Shown here piece after piece: positions 2,431-31,689 of a stretch of 64,000 nucleotides of DNA. Position numbers and translations under genes: made by a program. This DNA is from Candidatus Berkelbacteria bacterium. GTDB taxonomy: Bacteria > Patescibacteriota > UBA1384 > XYA2-FULL-43-10 > CAINNR01. The notes under the pieces are model-generated. The model had not been told where the DNA came from and did no database searches. It saw only the letters and a list, made by a program, of their open reading frames with translations. The stretch lies in assembly GCA_037142675.1 (NCBI GenBank), contig JBAXAF010000004.1, forward strand, positions 326 to 64,325, written 5' to 3'. How positions within the stretch are numbered: the first letter of the stretch is position 1; every line of letters begins with the position of its first letter.

Positions 2431-3816
2431 CTATTCGAATATCATCTCTTTAAGCATTTCAACCTCATCTTTAAATTGTTTGGAATTACCCATATCCTTA
2501 TTAACAGCCTTACAACCATGCATAATTGTAGTATGATCCTTCCCTCCTAATTCACGCCCAACCTCAGGAAAGGATAATCCAACAATATTATAAAGAATAT
2601 ACATTGCAACATGACGAGGTTTAATAACTTCCTTATTTCGTTTGGATGAGACTATATCATCAATTGATATGTTGTAGAATTTTTGTATAGTTTTTAAAAC
2701 TTTTTCAGCTGAAACAACCTGTCTTTTTGTGCTGTGTGAAACCTCGCTAGAGAGCAGTTTTTCAACAACGGCCATTGATGGTTTTTCATTAATAAGATCC
2801 ATGTGGGCAAAAAGTTTATTTAGAGTTCCTTCTAATTCACGAATGCTTGAACTAATATTTTTTGCAATAAATTCCAGAATTTCATTATCAATATTCTTTT
2901 TATGTTCCTGGCACTTCATTTTAAGTATAGCCAATCTCATTTCATAGTCCGGTAATTGAATATCAGCCACCATGCCCCACTCAAAGCGGCTAATCAAGCG
3001 TTTTTCCAATCCTTTAATCTCTTTCGGTGGACGATCAGAAGTAAGAATAATTTGTTTATTTTTCTGATGGAGGTGGTTAAAGGTGTGAAAAAATTCCTCT
3101 TTAGTACCTTCTTTATTGCCCAAAAACTGCACATCATCAACAATTAAAATATCAATATTGCGATAGCGATCTTTAAATTCCTTAGCCTTGCCGCCACGGA
3201 CAGAATCAATATAGTCATTGGTAAATGTTTCACAGGAGACATAAACCACTTTGGTTTTCGGTTTTTGACTAATGGCATAGTTTCCGATTGCTTGCGCCAA
3301 GTGAGTTTTCCCCAGGCCCGGATCGCCATAAATAAAGAGGGGATTATAACTTTTTCCCGGTTTCTGCGCCGATGCTTGAGCAGCAGCATTGGCCAACTGA
3401 TTTGATGAGCCGACTATAAAATTTTCAAAAGTGTAACTGTTCTTCAGGTAGCCATTTTCTTTGTTATCCACAGGCATCTCGTAGTCAGTATTTTCACTCG
3501 AGTTATCCACAGGCCTGTGAATAACTACTGGTACGTCGGTTGGTTTTTCGGCTTTTGTGGAAGTGGACGCGACTTTAAATTTTATCTCCTCAATAGGCTC
3601 CTTGAGCTGCTTTGTTAAAGCATTTTTGATTTCCTTAACATAATGTTTTCGAAGGTAGTCTTCGATAAAAAAAGATGGCACTCCGACTGTAAAAACGCCC
3701 TTTTTGAAGTCCAAAATAAACGTGCCGGCAAACCACGTTTGAAAGTTAGCTTTAGAAATTACCACCTCTAACTCCCCAAGAGCAACTGACCAGATTTTCT
3801 GTAGATCTTTCTCCAT
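2431..3816 (-). CDS. dnaA: Chromosomal replication initiator DnaA (native, low GC)
   Basis: Walker A GDPGLGKTHLAQAIGN; C-terminal DNA-binding domain; likely start MEKDLQKIW at 3816 rather than the ORF-track start; internal DnaA boxes at 3463 and 3503/3516 coincide with repeated PVDN codons. Confidence 0.93.
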   Translation of the reverse strand: MEKDLQKIWSVALGELEVVISKANFQTWFAGTFILDFKKGVFTVGVPSFFIEDYLRKHYVKEIKNALTKQLKEPIEEIKFKVASTSTKAEKPTDVPVVIHRPVDNSSENTDYEMPVDNKENGYLKNSYTFENFIVGSSNQLANAAAQASAQKPGKSYNPLFIYGDPGLGKTHLAQAIGNYAISQKPKTKVVYVSCETFTNDYIDSVRGGKAKEFKDRYRNIDILIVDDVQFLGNKEGTKEEFFHTFNHLHQKNKQIILTSDRPPKEIKGLEKRLISRFEWGMVADIQLPDYEMRLAILKMKCQEHKKNIDNEILEFIAKNISSSIRELEGTLNKLFAHMDLINEKPSMAVVEKLLSSEVSHSTKRQVVSAEKVLKTIQKFYNISIDDIVSSKRNKEVIKPRHVAMYILYNIVGLSFPEVGRELGGKDHTTIMHGCKAVNKDMGNSKQFKDEVEMLKEMIFE

Positions 3817-4040
3817 TTCGCTCCTCAAAATTACTGTACTAAAAACATAGCAAGTTATCCACAGGGGGTGCAAGCACCCCAACTAAAAACTAATAACTAA
3901 AAACTAATAACTAAAGAATTGGAGCGACTATTTTCATTATAATAGTTGATTTTCGCATACGCTTGTGTTACACTCTTTCAGTATCGAATAGATTCGAACT
4001 CCACAACTATTCGTTATTCACTATTAGTTATTCGTTATCA

Positions 4041-4178
4041 ATGAAGCGAACTTACCAACCAAACAATCGAAGACGACACAAAAACCACGGCTTTCTAACA
4101 AGAATGAAATCAGCCGATGGTGCTAATGTTATTGCAAGACGAAGAAAAAAGGGCCGCAAGAAATTAAGCGTAGCCTAA
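4041..4178 (+). CDS. rpmH: 50S ribosomal protein L34
   Basis: [45 protein letters not shown]. Confidence 0.93.
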
Positions 4179-4193
4179 ATTAGCTAACAGCTG

Positions 4194-4232
4194 TCAGCTA
4201 TTAGCTTTCAAGAGCCGTAAGGCTCTTTTTTG
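4194..4232 (+). terminator. Intrinsic terminator after rpmH
   Basis: agagccgtaaggctct hairpin followed by tttttt. Confidence 0.7.
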
Positions 4233-4402
4233 TTTTGTTTGGTATAAAATATCCACAGCATGAAGCTGTGTTATTTTTTAACGCTTTGTTTCATTTCTGT
4301 TTCTACCAGAAATGTTACTATTGGTCGCTCAATCATGGGTGGGTAGTCATGACTTTCACTTTCTTGTTATAATCTAGAAAACAACTAACATTTGGAGGCA
4401 AT

Positions 4403-4597
4403 ATGCCAGGAATCGAAAGTGGTCAAGGTGTTTATGGTAGCGATGTTACTCGGGAAGAAAATAAAGATTGGGCAGCAGGCAAAGGGGCCGAAGCAAATGC
4501 AAATGCAAATGAGTTGGCTAAGGGGTTGGGCAGGGAGAATCCTATTGCTCCAGAAGGACCAACACAGGATGAAGAGAGGTTGGATAAAGTCGCCTAA
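4403..4597 (+). CDS. Small hydrophilic hypothetical protein (64 aa)
   Basis: RBS ggagg 7 nt upstream; terminator hairpin 4612-4640; Ala/Asn/Glu-rich low-complexity sequence. Confidence 0.45.
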   Translation: MPGIESGQGVYGSDVTREENKDWAAGKGAEANANANELAKGLGRENPIAPEGPTQDEERLDKVA

Positions 4598-4642
4598 ATT
4601 AATAAGAAAATCAAAACTGAGCTCACCGGAGCTCTTTTTTGA

Positions 4643-4671
4643 TTGACAAAGAATGCTAAATCGTATATATT
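4643..4671 (+). promoter_or_regulatory. Near-consensus sigma70 promoter (TTGACA-17-TATATT)
   Basis: ttgacaaagaatgctaaatcgtatatatt read directly. Confidence 0.6.
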
Positions 4672-4698
4672 CAACGCGCATTAACCGAGCTTATGTGA

Positions 4699-5304
4699 GT
4701 GAGGTGCAAGGCTGTGGATTACCGTACCGCCATAGGCGTAGCTGCTGGCGCGATGATTCTGGCCGGGTATGCTGTATATATCATCGGGATGTTGCGTTCG
4801 GAGGGTAGCCCCCGGCCGGTGACGTGGAGCATCTGGGCGCTAACGGACCTGGCTATTCTTGGCAGCTTCTTGGTCAGCGGAGCTCATAGTGTCGGATGGA
4901 TGCAGTTGGGCACGACCGCCGGAAATGTGGCGGTCACAATTCTTTCGATAAGACGGGGGTTGTTTAGAGTCGGGCGGATTGATGTGGCATGCTTTCTGCT
5001 TGCATTTGCTGCAATCACTGCCCTTGTGATGTTTCATGACCCCGCAGCCACGCTTCTCTTCGGGTTAGCTTCAAAAACAATAGGCTTCATCCCAACAGGA
5101 CTGAAGTTGTGGTTCGCGATGAAGAACTTCAGGGCAGGTGATAGGGAGTTCTGGCCAACGTGGACGCTCTGGGCTGCTGCGGACATGGCAAGCATCTTCG
5201 CGGTTCAACATTTTGTGTCCATTGAGACGCTGGTCCCTGTGCAGTATAGTGCTCAATGCCTTCTAGTGCTTTATCTGAACAGCAAGATCCCCAAGTCCCC
5301 GTGA
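4699..5304 (+). CDS. GC-rich integral membrane protein, hypothetical (cassette A)
   Basis: 201 aa, multiple hydrophobic helices; terminator cccgtgacaaacgggg plus T-run at 5297-5323. Confidence 0.6.
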   Translation: MRCKAVDYRTAIGVAAGAMILAGYAVYIIGMLRSEGSPRPVTWSIWALTDLAILGSFLVSGAHSVGWMQLGTTAGNVAVTILSIRRGLFRVGRIDVACFLLAFAAITALVMFHDPAATLLFGLASKTIGFIPTGLKLWFAMKNFRAGDREFWPTWTLWAAADMASIFAVQHFVSIETLVPVQYSAQCLLVLYLNSKIPKSP

Positions 5305-5334
5305 CAAACGGGGCTTTTTTTATTGACTCACGAT

Positions 5335-5362
5335 TGACAAAGTATATACTTTTTGCTATAAT
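5335..5362 (+). promoter_or_regulatory. Sigma70-like promoter (TTGACA-16-TATAAT)
   Basis: ttgacaaagtatatactttttgctataat. Confidence 0.6.
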
Positions 5363-5432
5363 GCTCGTACACAGTAACGCGTAAATAGGCCGGGCCTGGG
5401 GGCCATCACAATTCCCAGCAGAGGACATAGAA

Positions 5433-6044
5433 ATGCCCAAGAGTCTCCGCGTCGTTCTGGTGGTTGTTGTGATGGTCCTGGCTAGCATGGCTGCGCACGC
5501 TGACGGCACGCTGTTCCAGCGCTTGGACATGGCTCGGGGCGCCGGGCCTTCGTTGACCACCGCTTGGCTCGATTCCTCGGGCCTCGAGTTGTGGTCGTTC
5601 TGCCAGCCGGACTTCCCGATGTACGAGTTGGGCAAGCTCTGGCCGGTCAAGGCCGACGAGGGCGACACCTTGCTTCTGGGAGGGTATGTCAGTTGGTGGG
5701 ACAAGGTCGACCAAGTCTTCCTGGAACCGTTCTGGGTGTACAACCACCCGCTTGACGGCGACTGGAAGATGGAAACCGGAGGTGGGGCTTACGTCCCTCT
5801 GAACGGTGGGCCCTGGGTCTTCTATACGTCCCAGGTGGCTCTGTCTCACCACGTGAGCAAGAACGTGCGCGCCGGGATCGCTGCCACCAACTGGTGGCAG
5901 GAAGGTGTCGGCAACAGTATCGCCATCGGTCCGAAGCTGAAGATCAGCGCTGGAGACACGTCGTGGCTGCTGCGTTACACCTTCGGTGTAGCCGGTGGAG
6001 CGCCCGATACCGCCCGCGTCGAGCTCAGCATCAAGCTGGACTGA
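5433..6044 (+). CDS. GC-rich secreted protein with signal peptide, OMP-like beta-rich (cassette B)
   Basis: MPKSLRVVLVVVVMVLASMAAHADG signal peptide; alternating aromatic/Gly pattern; terminator 6075-6112. Confidence 0.6.
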   Translation: MPKSLRVVLVVVVMVLASMAAHADGTLFQRLDMARGAGPSLTTAWLDSSGLELWSFCQPDFPMYELGKLWPVKADEGDTLLLGGYVSWWDKVDQVFLEPFWVYNHPLDGDWKMETGGGAYVPLNGGPWVFYTSQVALSHHVSKNVRAGIAATNWWQEGVGNSIAIGPKLKISAGDTSWLLRYTFGVAGGAPDTARVELSIKLD

Positions 6045-6118
6045 TGCTGAACACTGAGCAATGAACGAGTACAAGCGTCTGGCCGACTTCTGGTCAGGCG
6101 CTTTTTTAATTCAAATAA

Positions 6119-6907
6119 TTATTTCAGGTGATCCCAAATAAAATAAAACACAGCTCGCCAAGAATCGGCGATGTTTTTGTTTTCGTGAATCGACATATTC
6201 GAGTTCTTGTAGTCAAAGAGGACAAAAAGGTTATTGAAAATAACTATTGGTGCGGGAAACTCCTCTTTGTTAGGCATGTATTTAAGATTCGCAGGAGGTA
6301 AATTAAATCTTTCGACAATATAAGGATTGCGGATGTGTTCTTCAGGCGTTTTTCCGCGCTGACTTTTAGGTAAGATAGCTAGAATATTTACATCAAGCTT
6401 TTCAGCGGGCCTAACAAATTGTTTGAGAATTGGGTTTGATTCTGAGACAGTTTTGTACGAGTTCCCAAATATTAATACTTTGTTAAGTGGGGGTTTAAGC
6501 TCGGCGAATAATTGATAAAGTCGATCATAAAACTTTGTTATTTCATCAATTCCTCGATAATACTCCGTAATAGTTTGGCTTGTCACTCGATTATACTGTT
6601 CATCTATTTTTGGCAGTATTGAGCTAAGTTCCTGCTTTTTATTTGCCAATATTGACTCAAAAACAGACGGATCGGCGGGTTGATAAAGCGTTCTCTTGCC
6701 CTGCTCAATTGACAAGAGTAGTTTTTTTGAGATCAATCGATCGACATAATAATAAACAGCAGTTCTCTCAACGCCAGCGTTACGAGCTATCTCTGAAAAC
6801 GTTGCTTTGCCAAGTTCAACGGACGACAAATAAACCAAGACCTCAATTCGTTCTAGGCCAAGAGCTATCAACGGTTCGATGTCTTTTGAAGTGTCAAAAT
6901 ATTTCAC
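6119..6907 (-). CDS. TrmB-family HTH transcriptional regulator (paralog 1)
   Basis: N-terminal wHTH LGLERIEVLVYLSSVELGKATFSEIARNAGVERTAVYYYVDRL; low GC. Confidence 0.8.
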   Translation of the reverse strand: MKYFDTSKDIEPLIALGLERIEVLVYLSSVELGKATFSEIARNAGVERTAVYYYVDRLISKKLLLSIEQGKRTLYQPADPSVFESILANKKQELSSILPKIDEQYNRVTSQTITEYYRGIDEITKFYDRLYQLFAELKPPLNKVLIFGNSYKTVSESNPILKQFVRPAEKLDVNILAILPKSQRGKTPEEHIRNPYIVERFNLPPANLKYMPNKEEFPAPIVIFNNLFVLFDYKNSNMSIHENKNIADSWRAVFYFIWDHLK

Positions 6908-6966
6908 ATATCTATTATATCAATACTCCAAAACATGTCAAATATTTGGCAATAGTGTCTAAAGCA

Positions 6967-6995
6967 TTGACTAAAATAAGAATAAATGATACAAT
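6967..6995 (+). promoter_or_regulatory. Consensus sigma70 promoter TTGACT-17-TACAAT
   Basis: ttgactaaaataagaataaatgatacaat. Confidence 0.65.
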
Positions 6996-7080
6996 TCGGC
7001 GTTATGCTGAAGTCTCGGATTTTGGCATAAGGCAAAAAACACAAGGCTGGTTTGGTGCCTAACCAAACGGAGATAAATAG

Positions 7081-7674
7081 ATGATTAAGTTTCGCAACGC
7101 TGTTCTGGTGATGGTTGTGCTGGCGGATGTTTGCTCGGGTGTGCTGGCGCAAAGCGCCTTCATCCGCACTGAGGGTGCAGATGGTAAGGCACCGATGCAA
7201 ACGTTTGCCGCATGGGACGATACGTACGAAATCTGGCTCCAATCGTTCAACACCGATAGCTTCACTATTAGGGGTGGACCGCTCCAGAAGCTAGACAACG
7301 GGATGAAGTTGTCTGAGTGTTTGGCATGGACACCCAAAACTGGCGCGCTGGCGGTTAATGTCAACACCGGCAATGCCACGGTCTGCCAGAAGAGCAAGAC
7401 GTTCTGGGAGCTGGGCGCATATGCTCCGTTGAACGACGCGTCGAGTTGGGCGCTGGTGCTGTACGACGCTCGCCTCCTTGCACGGCTAACGCCCGAGCTG
7501 GCAATTGGTCCAGTCGCCTACGGCAAGTGGAGCGAGGGCGCCGGAAACGACTTCCTCTCCGCTGGCGTCGCCGTTGAGTACCGTGTGAAGGGCGGCTGTT
7601 TCTACGGCCGCTTGGCACGGAATCTCGTGTCTGATAAGAACGAGTTCCGGCTTCAATACGCCTTTGGCTTCTAG
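7081..7674 (+). CDS. GC-rich secreted OMP-like beta-barrel protein ending in aromatic F (cassette C)
   Basis: Signal peptide MIKFRNAVLVMVVLADVCSGVLAQSAF; C-terminus ...LQYAFGF (OMP C-terminal signature); terminator 7693-7733. Confidence 0.6.
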   Translation: MIKFRNAVLVMVVLADVCSGVLAQSAFIRTEGADGKAPMQTFAAWDDTYEIWLQSFNTDSFTIRGGPLQKLDNGMKLSECLAWTPKTGALAVNVNTGNATVCQKSKTFWELGAYAPLNDASSWALVLYDARLLARLTPELAIGPVAYGKWSEGAGNDFLSAGVAVEYRVKGGCFYGRLARNLVSDKNEFRLQYAFGF

Positions 7675-7747
7675 CCAACACAAGAACATCAATGCAAGCG
7701 CTGGGCCTTCGGGTCTGGCGCCTTTTTTTGTCCAAATTATGTAACCC

Positions 7748-7776
7748 TTGACAAACAAATATCACTAGGTTATAAT
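7748..7776 (+). promoter_or_regulatory. Consensus sigma70 promoter TTGACA-17-TATAAT
   Basis: ttgacaaacaaatatcactaggttataat. Confidence 0.65.
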
Positions 7777-7993
7777 TGCTCTACTATGGAATTCATACAT
7801 ATACAATCCATGCTCGGATACAAAATCAACCCAACTTTTCGTTGGGCCACCTTTAGTTTGTCTAACCGAGCTGATTCCTCATTTCATTATATAACGTGAT
7901 TTTTTAGAACTCATATATAACTTGAAGAACGTCTTGGTTAGCTAGACCAAGGCGTTTTTGTTTTAGCTATGTTCGTACACAATTTGAAAGGAA
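7777..7993 (+). promoter_or_regulatory. Long structured 5' leader with terminator-like hairpin; candidate riboswitch/attenuator
   Basis: Hairpins cccaacttttcgttggg and gaacgtcttggttagctagaccaaggcg followed by tttttgtttt; RBS aggaag before ATG. Confidence 0.4.
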
Positions 7994-9190
7994 GTGAGAA
8001 AGATGGCAAAAAAGACCGTGAGGTATTACCTGTTGTTGTCGTTGCTCTACCGATTTTCCAATACCTGCTTTGCCGCGACCTATGTAACATTTCTAATGAG
8101 CAGGGGAGGACTAAACCTGTTTCAGGTTAATATGGTCAATTTCATCTTCTTTGCGACGATGTTTTTGACCGAAATCCCGACCGGCGCCGTGGCCGACTGT
8201 TTCGGTCGCAAGCTGTCTTTTCTTATCTCTTGCTCGATTAACTGTGTTTCGTTGCTGGTGTATGCCCTGTCGCACACCTTCACTGGCTTTGCCACCGCCG
8301 AGGCAATGGGCGCAGTTGGGTCAACATTCTCGTCAGGCGCATTTCAGGCCTGGGTGGTTGATTCTCTTAACCACCACGGCTACCAGGAGGACTTTGGCAA
8401 GCTGTTCGCTCGCCAAAACCAGTTGGGCAACTTGGTCGGTATGGGTGCCGCCATCATTGGTGCACACCTGGCAACTATAAACCCGGCTTTCCCTTGGTTT
8501 CTGTCGGCTGCGTTTGTCTTCGCCACTGGTGTTGTCGCAATCTTTGTTATGAGGGAGGACTACCGGGAAAAAAGCAGTATCAATTTGTTGGCGACAGCCA
8601 AAGAGTTCGGCCGCAAGTTTGTGGTTAGCGCCCAAACAATCCGTGCTGGTGGGCCAGTAACACTAATGATGTTACTTGGACTGGTCTATTCCATTGGAGT
8701 CCAAGCCCCCAACATGCAGTGGCAGCCGTATTTCCGTAAGCACTTCGCCTCGGAAGCTGAATTGGGTTATTTGTGGGCTGGTGTCTCATTGGCGATCATC
8801 ATTGGCTCACAAATGTCAGCCATGATGCGTCGTGGGCCTGCGTTCGAGCGACTAGCGTTGATAGGAACCCAGGTTTCTATTGGCCTATTCATCGCGCTAG
8901 CGGGGATACAGTCGCCGTGGATGTTATCTGTTTTGTTTTACCTCATCCACGAGGCTGGGCGTGGGATGTTTTCACCGCTTAAGGATGCGTATCTCAACGA
9001 TGCCATCCAAAAGGAGGAGCGGGCAACCCTACTTTCCTGTGGTTCAATCTCTAGCCACATCGGTTCAATGGTTGGGCTAGTGATGTCTGGTCTTATGGCC
9101 AACAGGCTCTCAATCGCTCCCACCTGGATAGTGTCAGGGATTTTCCTTGTCGTCGGGACACTCGCAGTGTCTCGAATCAAGCGCACATGA
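7994..9190 (+). CDS. MFS-family transporter (cassette D)
   Basis: 398 aa, about 12 TM helices; GRK motif in loop 2-3; terminator gcggtctgc...gcagaccgc plus T-run at 9195-9228. Confidence 0.75.
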   Translation: MRKMAKKTVRYYLLLSLLYRFSNTCFAATYVTFLMSRGGLNLFQVNMVNFIFFATMFLTEIPTGAVADCFGRKLSFLISCSINCVSLLVYALSHTFTGFATAEAMGAVGSTFSSGAFQAWVVDSLNHHGYQEDFGKLFARQNQLGNLVGMGAAIIGAHLATINPAFPWFLSAAFVFATGVVAIFVMREDYREKSSINLLATAKEFGRKFVVSAQTIRAGGPVTLMMLLGLVYSIGVQAPNMQWQPYFRKHFASEAELGYLWAGVSLAIIIGSQMSAMMRRGPAFERLALIGTQVSIGLFIALAGIQSPWMLSVLFYLIHEAGRGMFSPLKDAYLNDAIQKEERATLLSCGSISSHIGSMVGLVMSGLMANRLSIAPTWIVSGIFLVVGTLAVSRIKRT

Positions 9191-9234
9191 CTCAGGCGGT
9201 CTGCTCCTCGCAGACCGCTTTTTTTGTCCCAAAT

Positions 9235-9990
9235 TTAGCCTTCGCCGACTTTTGCCTCGGTGGATTTCTCCCACAATAGAGTGTGGAAAATTTTCATTGC
9301 CTCGTATAGTTCTTTACTCTTAATAAGCATGCCAAAGTTCTCTTTTTGCGTGCTAAAAACACTAAGTTTTCCTGTGTCGTAGATTCCAATTCCAACCTCA
9401 ATTCTCATCCCATCTGGTCCCCATCGCAACTCTCGCAAGTACTCCAAGCCGTGTGATGATGTTTCATAGTTAATATCTGTATCTTTGTATCGAATAGTTT
9501 TGATAAATATTCCCTTTTCAATTCGAGCTTTGTCGATCTCGGCGATTGATCGTACCCCGCCAATCATTTGAGTTGCGCTCCCTGGCCAAATGTAGAGTGC
9601 CTCTTTTTTGCACTTCAACTCCTCGCGGATAACATTGCGCACCTGATCTGGCCCCTCAAAATAACTGACGCGTGGTTTGTGTGGGGTTAGATTAAATAAG
9701 TCTATAAAAGCCGGCAAACTATCTTTTAGTTTTGCCAATCTTTCATTCTCGAGCTCAATCAGGCGTTCTGGCGACTCAGCTTTGTAATTCATTCGGCCGT
9801 TTTTCTCGAACTTTGATATCAAACCCAGTTCAACTAGGTGATCAATAAAGTAATAAATTGATGTTCGTTTAATGCCGGCACGAGCAGCGATTGGAGTAAT
9901 GGTTGAACTGCCAAGCTCCAAAATAGCCAAGTAGACCTTGGCTTCCTTCTCGTCCAACCCAAATTTTACTAGTGTGTCCTCTTTGTTCAT
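9235..9990 (-). CDS. TrmB-family HTH regulator (paralog 2)
   Basis: FGLDEKEAKVYLAILELGSSTITPIAARAGIKRTSIYYFIDHL; start chosen at MNKEDTL (RBS gagga); ORF-track N-terminal 25 aa are GC-rich and atypical. Confidence 0.75.
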   Translation of the reverse strand: MNKEDTLVKFGLDEKEAKVYLAILELGSSTITPIAARAGIKRTSIYYFIDHLVELGLISKFEKNGRMNYKAESPERLIELENERLAKLKDSLPAFIDLFNLTPHKPRVSYFEGPDQVRNVIREELKCKKEALYIWPGSATQMIGGVRSIAEIDKARIEKGIFIKTIRYKDTDINYETSSHGLEYLRELRWGPDGMRIEVGIGIYDTGKLSVFSTQKENFGMLIKSKELYEAMKIFHTLLWEKSTEAKVGEG

Positions 9991-10156
9991 TCCTGTCATC
10001 CTCGGGCTTGCCTGCCCGCCTTTGGAGGGACCCGGGGATCCATTAATAGTTAAGACTTCGCACATATCGTCTAAAAAATCGTCGATAACACATTAATTCT
10101 AGCATAATTGGCACAAATTAGTCAAGTATTATTTGTCTAAATCATTGTCTAATATA

Positions 10157-10185
10157 TTGACAATATGCCAAATCAGTGATACAAT
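10157..10185 (+). promoter_or_regulatory. Consensus sigma70 promoter TTGACA-17-TACAAT
   Basis: ttgacaatatgccaaatcagtgatacaat. Confidence 0.65.
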
Positions 10186-10271
10186 GTGTTGTTACGATCG
10201 AAGTGGCAAACAAGCCAATCGCTCGTAAGGCAGATTACAACTTACGCCGGCGGGCTAACGCTAGGAATGAA

Positions 10272-10694
10272 ATGGATAACGATATTTGCGACTTTGGCTG
10301 TCCTGACGCCGTTGAGAACATCGCATTCAGTGGAAACACGTATTACGGCTTTGCTCGTTACGAAATCGCCACCGAGACCCGCGGGGGCATTCCTTACAAG
10401 ACTGAGGTTCGCGTCAACTATTTCCCCGTTGTTGATGGGCGCGTTCGGGTAGTAGATGTGGTTTTGATGCGATTCACCTGGGAGTCGTTTTACAAGACGC
10501 ATACGGTCGATGAAGCGCTGAAATCCAATTGGCCAGAAATATTGGCCGAGATGATCGCGGAGTCGCTGCCGGTTCGCATCGAGGAATTCTGCATCGCACG
10601 GCGCAAGAGTAGTGATCAGATGATACAGAATTTTAAGGAATGGCTGAAGTGTGAAAAGGGAATTGAGCTTTCGGAAGACCGCTCTGAACCGTAG
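10272..10694 (+). CDS. GC-rich hypothetical protein (operon E, gene 1)
   Basis: Start MDNDICDF with RBS aggaa; the ORF-track start 10176 would lie inside the promoter. Confidence 0.55.
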   Translation: MDNDICDFGCPDAVENIAFSGNTYYGFARYEIATETRGGIPYKTEVRVNYFPVVDGRVRVVDVVLMRFTWESFYKTHTVDEALKSNWPEILAEMIAESLPVRIEEFCIARRKSSDQMIQNFKEWLKCEKGIELSEDRSEP

Positions 10695-10719
10695 CAGGTT
10701 CGGAGCCGTTTCCGAGGGA
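10668..10719 (+). repeat. 52-nt hairpin-containing direct repeat, copy 1 (overlaps the 3' end of gene 1)
   Basis: ctttcggaagaccgctctgaaccgtagcaggttcggagccgtttccgaggga; about 92% identical to 11137-11188. Confidence 0.8.
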
Positions 10720-10756
10720 AATCAAGTGCTGGCGAGCCAAAACGCAAGGAAATAAC

Positions 10757-11131
10757 ATGAGTGGTACAGTTGACGATTTGATGGCAGCGCTTCGGATGAT
10801 CGACAGTCACTCGCAGCAGCTTGATGAAGAAAAAGAGACCCTGGCGTTGGCGCGGCGTGTCATCTCCGATCGTCACTTCCGGCAGCTGGTTCAGCGGCTG
10901 GAAACCGATCGGGTTGGATTGGCACGCGAGATCCTCGAAGCCGAGCAGATCCGCATCGACAACACCCCGATCGAAGATCTGTCGCTGTCGGTTCGGACAT
11001 ACAACGGCTTGAAGAAGAGTGGTATCAACACCCTCGGAGAGCTGGCTGAGTGCACGAAGGAGAAGTTGGCAGGCATCCGCAACTGGGGCCGCCGCTGCCA
11101 GGAAGAAGTAGATGAGATTCTGAAGAAATAG
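10757..11131 (+). CDS. Standalone RNA polymerase alpha-subunit C-terminal-domain-like protein
   Basis: IEDLSLSVRTYNGLKKSGINTLGELAECTKEKLAGIRNWGRRCQEEVDEILKK resembles the RpoA alpha-CTD helix-hairpin-helix. Confidence 0.6.
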   Translation: MSGTVDDLMAALRMIDSHSQQLDEEKETLALARRVISDRHFRQLVQRLETDRVGLAREILEAEQIRIDNTPIEDLSLSVRTYNGLKKSGINTLGELAECTKEKLAGIRNWGRRCQEEVDEILKK

Positions 11132-11136
11132 GAGTG

Positions 11137-11188
11137 CTTTCGGACGACCGCTCTGAACTGTAACAGGTTCGGAGCCGTTTCCGAGGGA
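11137..11188 (+). repeat. 52-nt direct repeat, copy 2
   Basis: ctttcggacgaccgctctgaactgtaacaggttcggagccgtttccgaggga. Confidence 0.8.
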
Positions 11189-11214
11189 GATAATCAGAAA
11201 GGTGGTTATGAAGT

Positions 11215-11625
11215 ATGTACATGTACCCTTTTGCATGGAGTGGCCAGGTATATAATCTGGGCGAAGGCGATGTCCAGATGCTGGTTGAGTTGTTGTGTGC
11301 AGGCCTAGACAAGGTGCTTGTAAACAACGATTACGAAGATGGCTCCAGGAAAGTGCGAATCTCGACTCACGACTATAAAAAGGCTAAATTCAACGACAAG
11401 CTGATCGAGCTCGAGTATACACTTCCCTGCAGGCATTTGCTTGTAGGACTGGGAAGTGGAGATTACCCGCGCTCCTTGCATCTTCCGCAAGCAATCGGTG
11501 GGGGGACCCTCGTCCGTAAGTCTCACGAGCCTGGCAAACCTATATACGTATGTCAGTTGGACATTGGAGACAGAAAGATAGAGCTGAAGGTGTGTTTCGT
11601 TGTGACTGAAGACAAGTTGAGATAG
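11215..11625 (+). CDS. GC-rich hypothetical protein (operon E, gene 3)
   Basis: RBS aaaggtgg; terminator ctccgggtcgtgattgattcggag plus T-run at 11660-11690. Confidence 0.55.
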   Translation: MYMYPFAWSGQVYNLGEGDVQMLVELLCAGLDKVLVNNDYEDGSRKVRISTHDYKKAKFNDKLIELEYTLPCRHLLVGLGSGDYPRSLHLPQAIGGGTLVRKSHEPGKPIYVCQLDIGDRKIELKVCFVVTEDKLR

Positions 11626-11750
11626 TCCAAGCAACTGCTGTCGGCAACCAACTTCGCCTCCGGGTCGTGATTGATTCGGAGCTTTTTTATTTCAAACTAG
11701 ATCCTTCGGCTACTCTCAGGATGACAATCTAAAAAATTCATGCTAAACTT

Positions 11751-12104
11751 TTGGCAATGTTAAACAATATCAACCGCCTGCGGAAGGCGGGGGAAATCCA
11801 AAAAGTATTCAAATTCGGCAAATCAATACGGTCTGCTAATTTTTCTATTCGCTATAATCCGAACCGCGCAAGCAATAATCGCTTCGCTGTTGTTGTTGGC
11901 ACAAAGGTGGACAAGCGAGCAACTCGCAGAAACGCTATAAAACGGCTTGTAAGAGAAGTTATTCGCTTAAATATACAATCTATCCCGACAAGCTTTGATA
12001 TTGTTCTCACGGCTCACAAACTAGCAAATTGGCCGATAAAACTGGTCGATGTCCAGCCAGAATTAACAGAACTGTTAAAACAAATTCGAAACTCTAAATC
12101 CTAA
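11751..12104 (+). CDS. rnpA: RNase P protein component
   Basis: 117 aa with conserved FAVVVGTKVDKRATRRNAIKRLVRE. Confidence 0.9.
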   Translation: MAMLNNINRLRKAGEIQKVFKFGKSIRSANFSIRYNPNRASNNRFAVVVGTKVDKRATRRNAIKRLVREVIRLNIQSIPTSFDIVLTAHKLANWPIKLVDVQPELTELLKQIRNSKS

Positions 12105-12205
12105 ATCCTAAACAAATCCAAATGATCCAATTTTCAAATATTTTAAACATTAAGACATTTGAATTTTGATATTGTTTAGAAATTAGATATTAGAATTTAG
12201 AAATT
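12095..12205. repeat. AT-rich palindromic intergenic repeat (family member)
   Basis: Nearly identical to 20583-20690: ...caaatgatccaattttcaaatattttaaacattaagacatttgaattttgatattgtttag... Confidence 0.7.
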
Positions 12206-12448
12206 ATGAAAAAAATCTTAATAAAAATCATTGAATTTTATCAGCGAACACTTTCGCCTGATCATGGATTTTTTTCATATAAATATCCAGCAGGATATTG
12301 CAAATATCATCCTGATTGCTCTGAATATTGTAAGCAGGCAATAGAGAAAAAAGGCGCTGTGAGGGGGATTGCGCTCGGAGCGTGGCGTGTGCTACGATGT
12401 AATCCATGGAGTTCTGGGGGGTACGATCCGGTGAATCATGAATCATGA
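12206..12448 (+). CDS. yidD: Membrane protein insertion efficiency factor YidD
   Basis: 80 aa, cysteine-rich YidD fold. Confidence 0.85.
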   Translation: MKKILIKIIEFYQRTLSPDHGFFSYKYPAGYCKYHPDCSEYCKQAIEKKGAVRGIALGAWRVLRCNPWSSGGYDPVNHES

Positions 12449-12509
12449 ATTGTGAATAATGGGCTCAAAACCATAATTCTTAATTCATAATTCTTAATTC
12501 AAGGAAAAA

Positions 12510-13382
12510 ATGTCTGCATTTTTCACAACCATCTTGTTTGTCCCGATCTATAACATGCTAATGTACTTGGTTGCCGTTATCCCTGGCCATCAAGTGGCAC
12601 TGGCTATTATCTTGCTAACTATTATCATTCGTCTGGTTCTTTTGCCATCTTCAATCAAGGCATCAAAATCTACAATTGAAATGCAGAAGATTCAACCACT
12701 ATTGAATGCTGTTCGGGCCAAATACAAGGGTGATCAGCTGAAAATGTCACAAGAAATGCAACGCCTGTTCAAGGAGCACAAGGTTTCGCCGTATGGAAGT
12801 TGTTTGCCACTAATTGTGCAGATGGTTGTACTTGTAGTTTTTTATCGGGTAATATTGATTGGTTTCAGCGCTGGCCACTTTAATCTCCTTTACTCATTTA
12901 TTCCCAAGCCTTCAGAGATTAATCTTGCCTTCTTTGGCATTGATGTTTCCAAGCCAGATCTGTGGGTTCTGCCAATTCTAGCTGGCGCGCTGCAGTTTGT
13001 TCAGACAAAAATGATGCCGCAGCCACCGCAATCAAAAGGTTCGAATGATCCAGCTGCAATGATGAACAAGCAAATAATCTATTTTTTGCCCTTGATTACA
13101 ATCTTCATCGGTCGTGCGCTTCCTGCGGGCCTGGCACTTTATTGGGTTCTAACATCCGTGGTTATGATTTTTCAGCAGTGGTATGTCAATAATCAATTTA
13201 AACTTGGTTTCTGGGGTAAGTTCCCTAATGTGCCAATTGCAGAGCTTCCTGAATACACCATAGATGATAAATCATCAGCCAAAGGCACTGAACTACACCC
13301 AGAACATGAAAAAATTATTCAGGCCGACGAAAAAAAGATCCGAGCTAAAGGCGTTGAGATTACAGTTCGAAAACGCAAGTAA
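12510..13382 (+). CDS. yidC: Membrane protein insertase YidC
   Basis: 290 aa, multi-TM; synteny rnpA-yidD-yidC. Confidence 0.88.
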   Translation: MSAFFTTILFVPIYNMLMYLVAVIPGHQVALAIILLTIIIRLVLLPSSIKASKSTIEMQKIQPLLNAVRAKYKGDQLKMSQEMQRLFKEHKVSPYGSCLPLIVQMVVLVVFYRVILIGFSAGHFNLLYSFIPKPSEINLAFFGIDVSKPDLWVLPILAGALQFVQTKMMPQPPQSKGSNDPAAMMNKQIIYFLPLITIFIGRALPAGLALYWVLTSVVMIFQQWYVNNQFKLGFWGKFPNVPIAELPEYTIDDKSSAKGTELHPEHEKIIQADEKKIRAKGVEITVRKRK

Positions 13383-15423: not shown

Positions 15424-16293
15424 TCAGGCAGACCTGACCGTGGCAGCATCCTCGGGCTGGCCAATGATCTGGCGGTACTTGTCGCGTAGCTCCGGCGACA
15501 ACCTCTCTGTCATGCTGATAGCGTCTCGACGGCCGCACAGGCTATCGTGGTGAGTGATGTGGGCGGCAACCAGTTTTTCGACTGCCGCCTCACGTTTGGC
15601 CGGTGGGAAGAGCGGGATCATGCACTCGGCATAATCGAGCCGGTAACTGGCGCTGCATGCTTCGTGGAAAAGCGCACGAAGACGCTTCTGGTCTCTAATG
15701 AAACCGAGCTCGGAGCTGAAACCGTTGACATCGCGGTAGGTGTACTGCGATCGGTGATGTTCAGCCGGGTGCATATCCATCTCGAGCAGGGAGAAGAACA
15801 GCCTCTCAAATGCTGCGTGTCGCAACCGCTTCGAGTCGATGGCGCGGATCGACCGCAGTGTTTCTTCGACGTTCCAGAAGCCATACCGGCAAAGCTGCAC
15901 GTTGGCGGCGTCACGGTCCTTTTTTGGGAGACCGACGATTGCTTTTCGCACTATGCGAATGTCGGAGTTCCGACGTGCGAGGTACTTCGGCATCCAGGTC
16001 ATAACCTCGTCGGTGTTCAGGTGACGACCAACGACCTCGAGATCGCGAAGCATGCCGTCGTAGTTGTAGCCATTTTCAACCACAATGGCTACAACTTTGC
16101 CTGCCTGCCCAGGTTGGAGCTCCTTTGGCAGTAGCGGAATGGCGGTGATGAGCGCAATCCTGAGCTGTTGGTGGCTGATCATCTTATCGATGACACCTGT
16201 TACCAGCTCCACCTTTCGCTCGGCGCTCATGTCTTGGAAGCAGTAGCTTAGCTGGCGCTCATATTCGTCCCCCCCAGATGTGGCTGACGGCAC
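15424..16293 (-). CDS. GC-rich hypothetical protein (island F)
   Basis: 289 aa; overlaps the upstream gene by 35 nt. Confidence 0.55.
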   Translation of the reverse strand: MPSATSGGDEYERQLSYCFQDMSAERKVELVTGVIDKMISHQQLRIALITAIPLLPKELQPGQAGKVVAIVVENGYNYDGMLRDLEVVGRHLNTDEVMTWMPKYLARRNSDIRIVRKAIVGLPKKDRDAANVQLCRYGFWNVEETLRSIRAIDSKRLRHAAFERLFFSLLEMDMHPAEHHRSQYTYRDVNGFSSELGFIRDQKRLRALFHEACSASYRLDYAECMIPLFPPAKREAAVEKLVAAHITHHDSLCGRRDAISMTERLSPELRDKYRQIIGQPEDAATVRSA

Positions 16294-16798
16294 AGTTGTA
16301 CCTGGCCATGACTAAGCAATGCAGCCGGTCTTCTGAGCGGTATTTGCTATTGGTCAGGCTTGAAGCATCCCTGGCCTGGTAATCGTAGCCGCCGAGGATA
16401 GTCAGCTCGTGAATTCGTCTTCCGACCTGTTTGCGCAGATGTTTTGTTTCGATCTTCCGGCACCAGTTGATCGCCGCCCAGAGTAGGGCCGCTGATCTGT
16501 GGTTATCGCTGCAAATTTCGACCTCAGCGATAAACTGGTTACAGGCTGCAAGTCGAAGATTATCAGCCTTGTCGCCGAGAAGTGCAGCAATTCTTGAGAG
16601 TGATTGCTCGGACTGGTGGATAGTGCGCCCGGTCATCCCGCCACCAGGTGTGATAATCACCATCCAGTGGATTAAGGACTTGGCGCATACCATCAACTGG
16701 TGATAAGTCAGACTGTGTCCGAGTTGGGTCACCAGGGTCACGGCCGCGTCAATATCACCAGCGATGATCAGAGCAGACAACAATTGCAAGGATCTCAT
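16259..16798 (-). CDS. GC-rich hypothetical protein (island F)
   Basis: 179 aa; RBS gagagg; minus-strand promoter TTGATT-17-TATAAC at about 16842-16870. Confidence 0.55.
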   Translation of the reverse strand: MRSLQLLSALIIAGDIDAAVTLVTQLGHSLTYHQLMVCAKSLIHWMVIITPGGGMTGRTIHQSEQSLSRIAALLGDKADNLRLAACNQFIAEVEICSDNHRSAALLWAAINWCRKIETKHLRKQVGRRIHELTILGGYDYQARDASSLTNSKYRSEDRLHCLVMARYNCAVSHIWGGRI

Positions 16799-16919
16799 TG
16801 TAGGTTCCTCTCACAAATCGGGTTGATTGTGAAACACCTAAGTTATATCAGCAAGCAATATTTTAATCAAATTTAATAAAAAAAACGCGGCGAAGGAACT
16901 CGCCGCGTGTACTCTTTGC

Positions 16920-18578: not shown

Positions 18579-18684
18579 GGTTGGCCTCTATTCTTGAGTA
18601 TCGCACTCATCTTAGCTCATGATTGTTTTATGTCAATAAAAAAAGGCGGGTATTAGCCGCCGTTAGTATTTGTGCAAGCCAACT

Positions 18685-19503
18685 CTACTGTTGGCGTGGG
18701 TCCCTGACAGGCATGACTCCTTGGTTTGACAGACCGTGGTCTACAGTGTGGACCAGCGGGGAGCCGCCGGAGAGCGGTGACATGAGCCATGCGATATGGT
18801 TGGCCACGTCTTCAGCCTTGGTGTTCACCCCTAATGGAACGGCGTGTGGCACGGCCTCGTATAATGAGCCGAAGTTCTTAACTCCCTTCGCCGCGATGGT
18901 GTTGATCGGCCCAGCGTCCAGCAGGTGGATGCGCACATTGGACTTTCCCATGTCGCCGGCAAGGTAGAGCGCTATTGAATCCAGTAGAGATTTGGCACTC
19001 GCCATTTGCCAGTAGTCCTCGATGTACTTCTCGGCACCCAGGAGGAAAGTCATCGCCACTCCCACAGCACCGTCGTTTAGCCGCCGGCCGAACCCCATGG
19101 CACCTGGGCAGAGTAAGGCTTTCGACATCCAGTGGAAGGAAAGGGCATTGAGACTGAGTGTCTCGATCCATTCCTCGGTGGTCATTGAGAGGAAGTTTCG
19201 TCCTTCCTGCTGAATGCTTGCAGGAGCAGCAGCCACGCTGTGGAGGTATCCATCAAGCATGATCCCTCTGTCTTGCAGTTCGCAGCGCAGGCGGACAAAA
19301 TCATCCTCGATCGAGAAATCACACGGGAGGATGATCTCGCCATCCTGGCGGAATTTTTCCGCTCTTTCAACAATGCTCGGATGGCATGTGATTACGGGCC
19401 TTCCTCCGTGGTTGCGAACTGCTTCAACGGTAGCCGTTCCGATGCCGCCGCGTAGGCCGACGCCGGAAACAAGTATGGTTCGTCCTTCAAGTAATCGTGA
19501 CAC
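18685..19503 (-). CDS. FabI-like enoyl-ACP reductase / SDR family (island F)
   Basis: ILVSGVGLRGGIG...Y-x6-K (YWQMASAKSLLD)...DAGPINTIAAKG...VDHG aligns with FabI; GTG start with RBS aagaggtg; promoter TTGACA-18-TATTTT at 19550-19579. Confidence 0.7.
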   Translation of the reverse strand: MSRLLEGRTILVSGVGLRGGIGTATVEAVRNHGGRPVITCHPSIVERAEKFRQDGEIILPCDFSIEDDFVRLRCELQDRGIMLDGYLHSVAAAPASIQQEGRNFLSMTTEEWIETLSLNALSFHWMSKALLCPGAMGFGRRLNDGAVGVAMTFLLGAEKYIEDYWQMASAKSLLDSIALYLAGDMGKSNVRIHLLDAGPINTIAAKGVKNFGSLYEAVPHAVPLGVNTKAEDVANHIAWLMSPLSGGSPLVHTVDHGLSNQGVMPVRDPRQQ

Positions 19504-19667
19504 TAGAAAGCACCTCTTTGGGTTGCTGGTTTTATGGGTCTGCAAGAAGGAAAATACCATTTTTTATTATTGATGTCAATGACATCCAGGGCGGTAGAAC
19601 TAATATCTGACCAATCTGATAATTTTTGTGGTAAAATAGATCTAAATATTAAGGAGGAGGAAATATT

Positions 19668-31543: not shown

Positions 31544-31689
31544 CATAATTATCACTCCCGTCCAAGTTTGTCCGATTTGTCAGACAGCTAATTATAGGTG
31601 GGTTACTTGCTAATATCTATACCGATTGACAGAAATACCGAAAAGATCTAAAATTAGTCTATAAATCAGTTGTCTAAAAGGTTCGACAA

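Follow-up and report, generated by a model that had tools for sequence, protein, structure and literature searches.

Transmembrane β-barrels ending in a C-terminal phenylalanine count as a signature of cells with two membranes and of the Omp85 assembly pathway. Two genes for secreted proteins that resemble outer-membrane barrels, one of them with such an end, were found in a 64-kb stretch of DNA (64,000 nucleotides, hereafter the window) from a CPR bacterium, a Candidatus Berkelbacteria MAG. CPR bacteria are held to lack an outer membrane on the evidence of microscopy and gene content (no TonB-ExbBD, no PilQ; PMC6744442) and are listed among the groups that lost it (PMC10160955). The sequence-only reading of the window had taken its host to be of this kind, and both the host and the literature bear this out. 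Because CPR are thought to be without an outer membrane, Omp85, TonB and PilQ (PMC6744442, PMC10160955), neither a receiving membrane nor an insertase is on record for such proteins. The locus therefore raises the question of what the two proteins are, whether they are in use and which membrane they could enter.

Two genes for predicted barrels and their expression signals

The two genes were designated barrel A (ORF A) and barrel B (ORF B). They and their expression signals are as follows.

5334-5362, + strand: barrel A promoter, TTGACA-17-TATAAT, 12/12 consensus, TG-extended; kept in the related locus L003
5363-5432, + strand: barrel A 5′ leader, with ribosome-binding site GAGGA
5433-6044, + strand: barrel A, 203 aa; signal peptide at residues 1-23 (5433-5501), then 12 predicted β-strands
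6073-6103, + strand: barrel A intrinsic terminator, 13-bp stem and T-run
6967-6995, + strand: barrel B promoter, TTGACT-17-TACAAT, 10/12, TG-extended
6996-7080, + strand: barrel B 5′ leader, with ribosome-binding site GGAG and two hairpins that are conserved in L003 (one compensatory pair)
7081-7674, + strand: barrel B, 197 aa; signal peptide at residues 1-23, then 12 predicted β-strands
7698-7721, + strand: barrel B intrinsic terminator

Both reading frames, their signal peptides, their richness in glycine and aromatic residues and their alternating strand pattern were confirmed as the sequence-only reading had described them. The signal peptides show n-, h- and c-regions in sequence. In barrel A, MPKSLRVVLVVVVMVLASMAAHA is followed by cleavage before DG (between AHA and D); in barrel B, MIKFRNAVLVMVVLADVCSGVLA is followed by cleavage before QS (between VLA and Q). 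A lipobox is absent from both and a lipoprotein reading was dropped on this ground. A Sec-type signal peptide was also found across the barrel family described below. The mature proteins are 174-180 aa long (~19 kDa). Their glycine content is 12.2% in A and 9.8% in B, versus 6.2% in core proteins; the corresponding values are 13.3%, 13.2% and 8.9% for aromatic residues and 6.1%, 3.4% and 1.2% for tryptophan. Barrel B ends in ...RLQYAFGF, with F at positions -1, -3 and -9, Y at -5 and L at -7, so that the YAFGF end noticed earlier was also confirmed. Barrel A ends in ...VELSIKLD and therefore has no terminal aromatic residue. The two proteins share 28% identity (pairwise E 2e-4) and, on this comparison, are weak, distant paralogues. 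Long ORFs on the opposite strand (5406-6074 and 7361-7765) were unsupported and were read as by-products of the high GC content.

Each gene is flanked by its own strong promoter and its own terminator. The leader of barrel A is ~95-100% identical to that of L003, versus only 82% for the coding sequence; despite this conservation, no significant RNA fold was obtained for it. An Rfam scan of positions 3800-12600 gave no match. Comparison with the L003 orthologues gave a dN/dS of 0.19 for both barrels, which are thus under purifying selection, and their reading as pseudogenes or decaying cargo was dropped. The earlier suggestion of non-functional cargo is contradicted by this value, by the consensus promoters, ribosome-binding sites and terminators and by the presence of the locus in four diverged genomes.

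Predicted fold and relatives

Structures were predicted with AF2. Barrel A was modelled with a pLDDT of 95.4 and a pTM of 0.83 (75-sequence alignment) and barrel B with a pLDDT of 87.6 and a pTM of 0.75 (11-sequence alignment). Each model consists of one N-terminal helix (residues 3-20 in A, 4-21 in B) and 12 antiparallel, hairpin-connected strands of 6-14 residues each. Loops at either end of the barrel are very short, at 2-7 residues, and there is no insert between the signal peptide and strand 1. The models were compared with the PDB using Foldseek. The matches listed were almost all transmembrane β-barrels (KdgM, NanC, VhGalP, FapF, COG4313 (4rl8), OmpG, PcoB and designed 10-/12-strand barrels), and the best structural neighbours of both models were transmembrane barrels throughout. 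The outer-membrane β-barrel reading made from the sequence was thus upheld, the prediction giving 12-stranded barrels and no soluble fold. A and B are confidently predicted to be 12-stranded transmembrane β-barrels like the porins of Gram-negative outer membranes.

Known families gave little at the sequence level. Pfam and NCBIfam scans of A and B returned nothing usable. When the 11- and 75-sequence alignments were run against sequence profiles of the PDB, all matches were non-significant (8qyd, E 0.38; PorV, E 1.5). The family was delimited by an exhaustive HMMER search of 1.84 billion representatives, which gave ~78 representative clusters at 50% identity. Word-index searches found nine and three homologues for the two ORFs, and a search with the 11-sequence alignment found one locus in the GTDB species representatives and two in the JGI metagenomes. 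A CPR setting is indicated by the NCBI name of the source organism and by a gene content with T4SS-pilin and T2SSE genes. For loci L007, L009-L011, L015 and L016, the CPR assignment was made from gene content only. The terminal residue is F in 57/75 members (76%) and F, L or W in 68/75. A C-terminal phenylalanine was reportedly described by Struyve et al. in 1991 as a hallmark of insertase-dependent barrels. The C-terminus of the family fits the classical β-signal only in part because position -3 is often polar. A and B are probably functional members of this small family, which had no name before and occurs in CPR-type genomes.

The best global structural match was to the KdgM/NanC porins (4fqe, 4pr7, 2wjq; VhGalP 8xua), with TM 0.59-0.70 and rmsd 4.2-4.9 Å for ORF A. 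For KdgM 4pr7/4fqe, Foldseek gave E 2.6e-6, TM 0.61/0.70 and rmsd 4.2 Å. The alignments span ~180-214 columns, and the TM values for ORF B were 0.52/0.58. Like barrels A and B, these porins have 12 strands, ~170-210 residues, the size of a monomer and a polar, charged lumen. The known ones are substrate-inducible and under a dedicated repressor, which parallels the divergent TrmB gene at barrel B. However, the structural alignments contain 6-13% identity (11-13% in the comparison with the KdgM family), with no sequence similarity; the Pfam KdgM model matched neither the window proteins nor the 75 family members. Barrels A and B also differ by their shorter loops and by a CPR host without a known outer membrane.

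The only detectable sequence link of the family is to the COG4313/PF13557 channels (Pput2725, 4rl8), which are twelve-stranded barrels (PMC4493636). Three of the 75 members match PF13557 at E ≤ 1, and two of these, the distant members P0078 (26.5 bits) and P0048 (23.3 bits), lie above its gathering threshold of 22 bits, with matches confined to the C-terminal half of the model. The window proteins had no Pfam match at E ≤ 0.1, and ORF B had none to PF13557 at E ≤ 1. The structure 4rl8 and FapF (5o65/5o68) are among the top structural matches, but COG4313 channels have ~260-300 aa, and the solved COG4313 and FapF chains have 254-296 residues. Barrels A and B are ~80-100 residues shorter and have no room for the N-terminal extension and long loops of these proteins. 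COG4313 channels occur in proteobacteria, whereas the barrel family occurs in CPR.

Designed 10-/12-strand barrels (8uzl, 9fdg, 6x9z) are likewise minimal and short-looped, with TM up to 0.63. In vitro, such minimal barrels need no BAM to fold into bilayers, and BAM-independent insertion is therefore physically possible. Unlike barrels A and B, whose lumen carries a conserved Arg/Asp/Glu/Trp/Tyr set, they have no conserved lumen. Outer-membrane barrels of phages (Aeromonas phage phiAS5; BFVD matches) have a similar small barrel fold as accessory cargo of a mobile pool. The likeness is at the level of the fold only (6-12% identity among the top BFVD matches), and the genes of A and B sit in chromosomal TrmB arrays, unlike the phage-encoded barrels. 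It is rather likely that the family is a CPR-specific, TrmB-regulated one of small porin-type channels, minimal short-loop kin of outer-membrane channels.

TrmB regulator and neighbouring genes

The genes and sites around the two barrels are as follows.

4714-5304, + strand: 196-aa polytopic membrane protein, directly upstream of barrel A; GC-rich, with its own terminator at 5297-5313
6119-6907, - strand: TrmB-family regulator of 'T1' type, divergent from barrel B (PF01978, E 4.8e-11)
6914-6941, - strand: TrmB gene promoter, 12/12, back-to-back with the barrel B promoter
6957-6971, + strand: candidate TrmB operator GTCTAAAGCATTGAC, overlapping the -35 element of the barrel B promoter
7748-9190, + strand: MFS transporter unit, with promoter 7748-7776 (12/12), hairpin 7925-7959 and MFS gene 8003-9190

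Orthologues of the T1 TrmB protein adjoin barrel B-type genes in L003 (91%), L001 (46%) and L006 (39%), and a divergent TrmB gene lies upstream of a family member in most contexts examined. Barrel A has no divergent TrmB gene. In the Pfam scan, the TrmB protein (6119-6907) did not match the sugar-binding C-terminal domain known from TrmB. The candidate operator is a 15-nt motif. Its sole other exact copy in the window is at 10147-10161, over the -35 element of the next TrmB-divergent cargo promoter, and the motif is also exact in L003 and L007. Copies with up to two mismatches are not above chance in the window (8 found versus 5.2 expected). The gene arrangement and the shared motif suggest that TrmB may control barrel B. 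A literature search on TrmB in CPR or Patescibacteria found no report.

The 196-aa membrane protein occupies the same position in L003, where it is only 39% identical, and had no Pfam or NCBIfam match. The MFS unit has a long leader with a terminator-like hairpin and a GC-rich gene; in L003 it holds the same place, following barrel B. The stretch from dnaA/rpmH to rnpA contains a B-type orthologue or another family member in the window and in L003, L008 and L006, and the barrel locus has been kept in four diverged genomes. Further cargo genes of the TrmB arrays look like genes for small secreted proteins rich in Gly and aromatic residues and ending in F or W. These other cargo proteins were compared with the barrel family by hhalign, with a negative result, and had no Pfam matches.

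Proposed receiving membrane and alternative readings

A mechanism can be proposed from these elements. Each barrel gene would be transcribed alone from its strong sigma-70-type promoter. Barrel B would probably be repressed by the divergent TrmB protein through the operator over the -35 element, and a small-molecule signal would lift the repression. The precursor would cross the cytoplasmic membrane by Sec, the signal peptide would then be cleaved and the barrel would enter a lipid bilayer lying beyond the cytoplasmic membrane of the producing cell. We infer from the models that the conserved polar lumen of Arg, Asp, Glu, Trp and Tyr could form a solute channel, which might feed the neighbouring inner-membrane importers, i.e. 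the MFS transporter and the 196-aa membrane protein. As to the bilayer, we favour the membrane of the cell to which the epibiont is attached, entered by self-insertion or with help from the host machinery, and consider it more likely than a cryptic outer lipid layer belonging to the CPR cell. The wider proposal is put forward tentatively: CPR may carry lineage-specific outer-membrane-type β-barrels that are assembled without canonical BAM and act as nutrient taps in the host-cell membrane or as porins of an unseen outer lipid layer.

Several other readings were weighed. The one that survives best is that some CPR lineages, among them this Berkelbacteria group, possess an outer lipid layer or membrane patches that have escaped recognition and of which the barrels are native porins, with a non-BamA or highly divergent Omp85 insertase reading the phenylalanine. 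This would account for the terminal phenylalanine of 76% of the members in a family whose observed contexts are all of CPR type, and for barrel genes that adjoin inner-membrane transporters, an arrangement suited to uptake across two membranes. The other array cargo, with its F or W ends, points the same way, and the envelope architecture of CPR is known from few imaged organisms (PMC8871954). Nevertheless, microscopy and gene content point to CPR without an outer membrane (PMC6744442), its loss in CPR is on record (PMC10160955), and the annotated genes of the window (64 kb) include no Omp85/POTRA family. The family is also rare (~78 clusters) and accessory, whereas one would expect a general porin native to these cells to be common and part of the core. 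We therefore consider this reading unlikely. A literature search combining Patescibacteria with porin or β-barrel found nothing relevant.

The barrels could also be secreted or wall-associated proteins that do not span a membrane, with a ligand-binding or structural role or with oligomerisation through the hydrophobic surface. The lack of a receiving membrane on record and the very short loops on both sides would suit such proteins, and an alternating hydrophobic/polar pattern alone fails to tell inside from outside. All 12 predicted strands have a hydrophobic face and a polar face, and the hydrophobic share of one face per strand is 58-87% across the family. In ORF A the polar face holds 16/19 charged strand residues (manual count) and almost all highly conserved positions (R30, D32, E52, W54, G67 and Y85, and also Y120, P122, G148, G166, R181 and R195). 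The overall entropies of the two strand faces were 2.80 and 2.46, a non-significant difference (p = 0.21). From the charged and conserved residues, the polar face is read as a constrained interior and the hydrophobic face, with its variable residues, as the exterior; this fits a polar lumen better than a surface exposed to solvent. A 12-strand lumen would probably be too wide to be packed by ~52 hydrophobic side chains, and in their overall GRAVY near -0.1, together with one strictly hydrophobic face, A and B are like outer-membrane proteins. Of the 50 PDB neighbours listed for either model, the sole non-membrane entry was a designed metalloprotein, at rank 43 for ORF A. Barrels without a membrane are thus doubtful, and are placed behind native porins.

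A recent import of both genes from a GC-rich Gram-negative donor, with no adapted role in the CPR cell, is very unlikely. Base composition speaks for it. The GC content is 62.3% in A (GC3 0.80) and 57.4% in B (GC3 0.70), for a window mean of 43.9%, and core genes have 37-44% (GC3 0.30-0.45), so that the excess over the host noted from the sequence is real. It is gene-sharp at its boundaries; the TrmB gene between the two GC-rich barrels has a host-like 37.9%. The fold and the terminal phenylalanine are typical of diderm outer-membrane proteins, and cassette content varies between related genomes. However, the excess is common to most accessory genes of the window, among them the MFS gene, whose homologues are almost all CPR-named (one distant, fragmentary match is named Latescibacteria). 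It recurs in four related contigs, one of them from a genome of 55% GC, where the cargo genes next to TrmB show it. Most of the contexts examined for the ~78 clusters have CPR-typical TrmB neighbours and none looks diderm. No relative was found in IMG/VR contigs with the 11-sequence alignment, nor by tblastn of ORF A against 50,697 phage records and against plasmid records. The promoters and terminators are AT-rich and of host type, and the dN/dS of 0.19 does not suit genes without a role. Between genomes that share 43-49% identity in DnaA, DnaN and YidC, the identity of barrel B reaches 67-69%, which points to exchange within CPR. The different donor proposed by the sequence-only reading, if a Gram-negative one was meant, thus found no support.

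Least probable of all is that the barrel is an artefact of amphipathic β-rich sequence with another fold: the alignment of barrel B has only 11 sequences and there is no experimental relative by sequence, but the five models of each protein lie within 1-2 pLDDT points of one another, the deeper 75-sequence alignment raised the confidence to 95.4, two independent queries shared their 12-strand topology and their neighbours, and two family members independently pass the Pfam threshold for a 12-strand outer-membrane channel family.

If insertion into a membrane outside the cytoplasmic membrane of the CPR cell is correct, a supposedly monoderm lineage would make and use porins, and the conserved C-terminal phenylalanine would point to an uncharacterised recognition step, by the BAM of the host or by a new insertase. 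The barrels are small (~19 kDa) and easy to synthesise and refold, and the question is therefore directly testable. Two meanings are possible. Either the single-membrane picture of CPR is incomplete, or epibionts export porins into the membrane of another cell. CPR epibionts are unable to make their own nucleotides, lipids or amino acids, and exported porins would give a concrete route for nutrient theft by CPR. The answer also matters for the loss or retention of the outer membrane in Terrabacteria.

Gene pair and the rpmH-rnpA island

The two supported reading frames at the barrel coordinates, ORF A (barrel A) and ORF B (barrel B), come from a MAG (GCA_964526775.1), of which the window covers the larger part of one 67.7-kb contig, and are both named 'hypothetical protein' of Candidatus Berkelbacteria at NCBI. 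At 28% identity (E 2e-4) they are distant paralogues, and each forms a monocistronic unit with a predicted promoter, RBS and terminator.

Barrel genes and island flanks
3963-4178: rpmH, island flank
5334-5362, +: barrel A promoter, 12/12 consensus
5433-6044, +: barrel A (ORF A), 203 aa, RBS GAGGA
6073-6103, +: barrel A terminator
6967-6995, +: barrel B promoter, 10/12 consensus
7081-7674, +: barrel B (ORF B), 197 aa, RBS GGAG
7698-7721, +: barrel B terminator
11751-13382: rnpA/yidD/yidC, island flank (rnpA, 11751-12104)

Both genes are located in a 7.5-kb island (window 4200-11700) between rpmH and rnpA/yidD/yidC, in the order 64-aa ORF, 196-aa membrane protein, barrel A, TrmB (-), barrel B, MFS transporter, second TrmB (-) and three small ORFs. 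rpmH and rnpA are ordinarily adjacent; here they are interrupted by GC-rich cargo genes and two TrmB genes. Related genomes (L003, L006 and L008) hold differing cassette sets at this site, with five TrmB/cargo units in L006 and a TrmB plus a barrel only in L008, and the island looks like a variable hotspot beside replication-origin genes. Downstream of a 12/12 promoter, the MFS gene carries a leader of roughly 225 nt (window 7777-8002). A terminator-like hairpin and T-run (7925-7959) in this leader are suggestive of an attenuator or riboswitch; the leader gave no Rfam match. The second TrmB is divergent from a GC-rich cassette, one gene of which (10757-11131, +) encodes a 124-aa stand-alone protein with a match to the RNA polymerase alpha-subunit C-terminal domain (PF03118, E 3.5e-19).

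Predicted fold and family

Signal peptides, Gly/aromatic richness, alternating beta-strands and an outer-membrane-protein-like end of the second protein had been proposed by the sequence-only reading, and all were recovered. Both Sec signal peptides are typical (AHA-DG in ORF A, VLA-QS in ORF B), and neither has a lipobox. Gly makes up 12.2% (A) and 9.8% (B) of the mature proteins, aromatics 13% of both and Trp 6.1% (A) and 3.4% (B), versus 6.2, 8.9 and 1.2%, respectively, in core proteins. ORF B ends in RLQYAFGF and ORF A in VELSIKLD.

AlphaFold2 models were obtained for ORF A (75 family members; pLDDT 95.4, pTM 0.83) and ORF B (11 homologues; pLDDT 87.6, pTM 0.75). Both start with a single N-terminal helix, which is the signal peptide, and continue as 12 antiparallel strands with turns of 2-7 residues between them. 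Nearly all PDB matches listed by Foldseek for either model are transmembrane beta-barrels, including KdgM (TM 0.61/0.70, rmsd 4.2 A), NanC, VhGalP, FapF, the COG4313 channel 4rl8, OmpG and PcoB, together with intimin/invasin beta-domains and designed 10- and 12-strand barrels. The sole non-membrane entry among those listed is a designed metalloprotein (rank 43, ORF A). The models and their neighbours therefore speak for 12-stranded barrels and against a soluble non-barrel fold; that the barrel is a modelling artefact is very improbable.

Every strand has a hydrophobic face (58-87% A/V/L/I/M/F/W/Y/C across the family) opposite a polar face (12-63% hydrophobic). In ORF A, 16 charged residues were counted by us on the polar face versus 3 on the hydrophobic face. 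Strongly conserved positions are nearly all on the polar face (R30, D32, E52, W54, G67, Y85, Y120, P122, G148, G166, R181 and R195); taken overall, the two faces differ modestly in entropy, without reaching significance (p = 0.21). Conservation on a polar face combined with variability on a hydrophobic one is what a lipid-embedded barrel with a functional lumen would be expected to show.

Few relatives were retrieved by word-index search, and exhaustive HMMER of 1.84 billion representatives gave 78 clusters (E <= 1e-3), none with an informative name in any source. Nearly all members are 185-210 aa long and almost all start with a signal peptide. No sequence match of any member to a solved structure was found. 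P0078 and P0048, both distant members, score above the gathering threshold of PF13557 (COG4313 outer-membrane channels) over the C-terminal half of the profile. On this basis the family sits close to a known group of outer-membrane channels, as a branch that is short and divergent; the window barrels themselves give no PF13557 match. The terminal residue is Phe in 57 of 75 members and F, L or W in 68. This conserved Phe is the sharpest puzzle of the family and implies recognition by something.

Probable TrmB regulation, selection and origin

A TrmB-family gene lies divergently just upstream of the barrel gene, or of a short operon with the barrel last, in the window (B), L001, L003 (B), L006, L007 (twice), L008, L009, L010 and L016. 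This arrangement is not seen at barrel A or its L003 orthologue, nor in L011 and L015. Beside barrel B-type genes the regulator is of the type of gene 6119-6907 (T1) in the window, L003 (91%), L001 (46%) and L006 (39%).

TrmB regulators in the window
6119-6907, -: TrmB regulator
9235-9990, -: TrmB regulator
31690-32442, +: TrmB regulator
34333-35094, +: TrmB regulator
56194-56928, +: TrmB regulator
61768-62517, -: TrmB regulator

These six regulators (about 250 aa each, 21-34% mutual identity within 64 kb) gave no Pfam match for their C-terminal domains, and several are divergent from GC-rich genes without known function. No link between TrmB and CPR was found in the searchable literature.

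The T1 promoter (6941-6914, -) is back to back with that of barrel B, whose -35 is covered by the 15-nt imperfect palindrome GTCTAAAGCATTGAC (6957-6971). Its single further exact copy in 64 kb (10147-10161) lies over the -35 of the next TrmB-divergent cargo promoter; about 0.01 exact matches would be expected by chance (our own estimate, not a tool computation). Exact copies occupy equivalent places in L003 (13341-13355) and L007 (6391-6405), and mismatched copies occur at window 10069-10083 and 10135-10149. The motif GTCTAAnnnATTGAC, on cargo-promoter -35s in TrmB-divergent intergenic regions, is a candidate operator of this TrmB subgroup. TrmB would repress barrel B, and a small-molecule effector would relieve this repression. 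The MFS transporter and polytopic membrane protein among barrel neighbours fit a solute-uptake theme, as association only.

A SAM-dependent methyltransferase gene directly precedes the barrel in one TrmB-divergent unit in L007 (6489-8101), L009 (7171-8594) and L010 (7011-8696); a similar one lies in a neighbouring cassette in L001 and L006, so the pairing is recurrent. Other TrmB-array cargo also has signal peptides and Gly/aromatic-rich beta-like sequence, mostly ending in F or W.

Barrel-like-looking cargo
L006 1437-1940, 5346-5882 and 7922-8440
L003 11489-12439
Window 50960-51556, -

The 167-aa and 172-aa cargo proteins of L006 are paralogues (E 1e-10). Comparison by hhalign revealed no relation between this cargo and the barrel family, and no Pfam match was obtained; judged from sequence, it may represent further small barrel families.

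The suggestion of non-functional cargo fared poorly. It is unlikely because dN/dS versus orthologues in L003, a related 97.8-kb contig, is 0.19 for both barrels (core genes, 0.05-0.06), each gene has its own promoter, RBS and terminator, and the barrel A promoter and 70-nt leader (5334-5432) are 95-100% identical to L003 9906-10000, the CDS only 82%. This leader may serve as a binding site for a protein or as another kind of regulatory element; its predicted RNA structure is not significant (z = +1.17).

GC content does lie far above the host's, as had been claimed: 62.3% in barrel A (GC3 0.80) and 57.4% in barrel B (GC3 0.70), with 37.9% in the TrmB between them and core GC3 of 0.30-0.45. Window GC3 is bimodal, about a quarter of genes (accessory) reaching 0.55-0.80, many adjoining TrmB genes.

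GC-rich accessory set in the window
4714-6044, 7081-9190, 10176-11625 and 15424-19503
22497-23051, 30707-31546, 36598-37995 and 50960-51556

GC3 shifts coincide with gene edges in the window, L001, L003, L006, L008 and even the 55%-GC L007. In all genomes examined, TrmB genes are at backbone GC and adjacent cargo is 10-25 points higher. A different donor had been envisaged; no diderm-looking genome was seen among the family contexts examined, and no barrel relatives were found in phage records or IMG/VR, nor ORF A relatives in plasmids. Relatives of the GC-rich MFS are almost solely CPR-named (Parcubacteria, Pacebacteria, Sungbacteria and Taylorbacteria), the lone other being a distant fragmentary match (Latescibacteria). 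For barrel B, identity is 67-69% between genomes that share 43-49% in DnaA, DnaN and YidC, and its dS versus L003 (0.6-0.8) amounts to roughly half the core-gene value. This suggests that cassettes were exchanged within CPR rather than imported from Gram-negative donors. Recent foreign cargo is a very unlikely description of the barrels.

Two further GC-rich loci were noted. A four-gene block (15424-19560, -; proteins of 289, 179 and 552 aa and a short-chain dehydrogenase) between GH1 and DUF7544 is probably a lineage-specific insertion because it is missing from otherwise syntenic L003; three of its four proteins had no Pfam match. A second DnaA-like gene (36598-37995, +; 465 aa, Bac_DnaA and Bac_DnaA_C, without DnaA_N) is well separated from the canonical dnaA (2431-3816).

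Target membrane and meaning

The window, a small part of the genome, has no Omp85/POTRA or other outer-membrane marker in its annotated gene set. CPR are reported to lack TonB-ExbBD and PilQ, microscopy being consistent with absence of a Gram-negative envelope (PMC6744442), and are counted among lineages in which the outer membrane was lost (PMC10160955); descriptions exist for few CPR envelopes (PMC8871954).

On balance, we lean towards functional, Sec-exported, porin-type 12-stranded transmembrane barrels of a rare family so far encountered in CPR-type genomes only, barrel B at least being probably TrmB-controlled. Given such channels, insertion into the membrane of an attached host cell is ranked first, as a tentative subjective choice, because minimal short-loop barrels can self-insert and CPR are epibionts. 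Insertion into a cryptic outer layer belonging to the CPR cell itself is, on the same subjective scale, unlikely. Outside the channel reading, a non-membrane role is likewise unlikely.

The barrel fold itself is already known. In the searchable literature, no description was found of this sequence family, of its linkage to TrmB genes or of its presence in a phylum regarded as monoderm.
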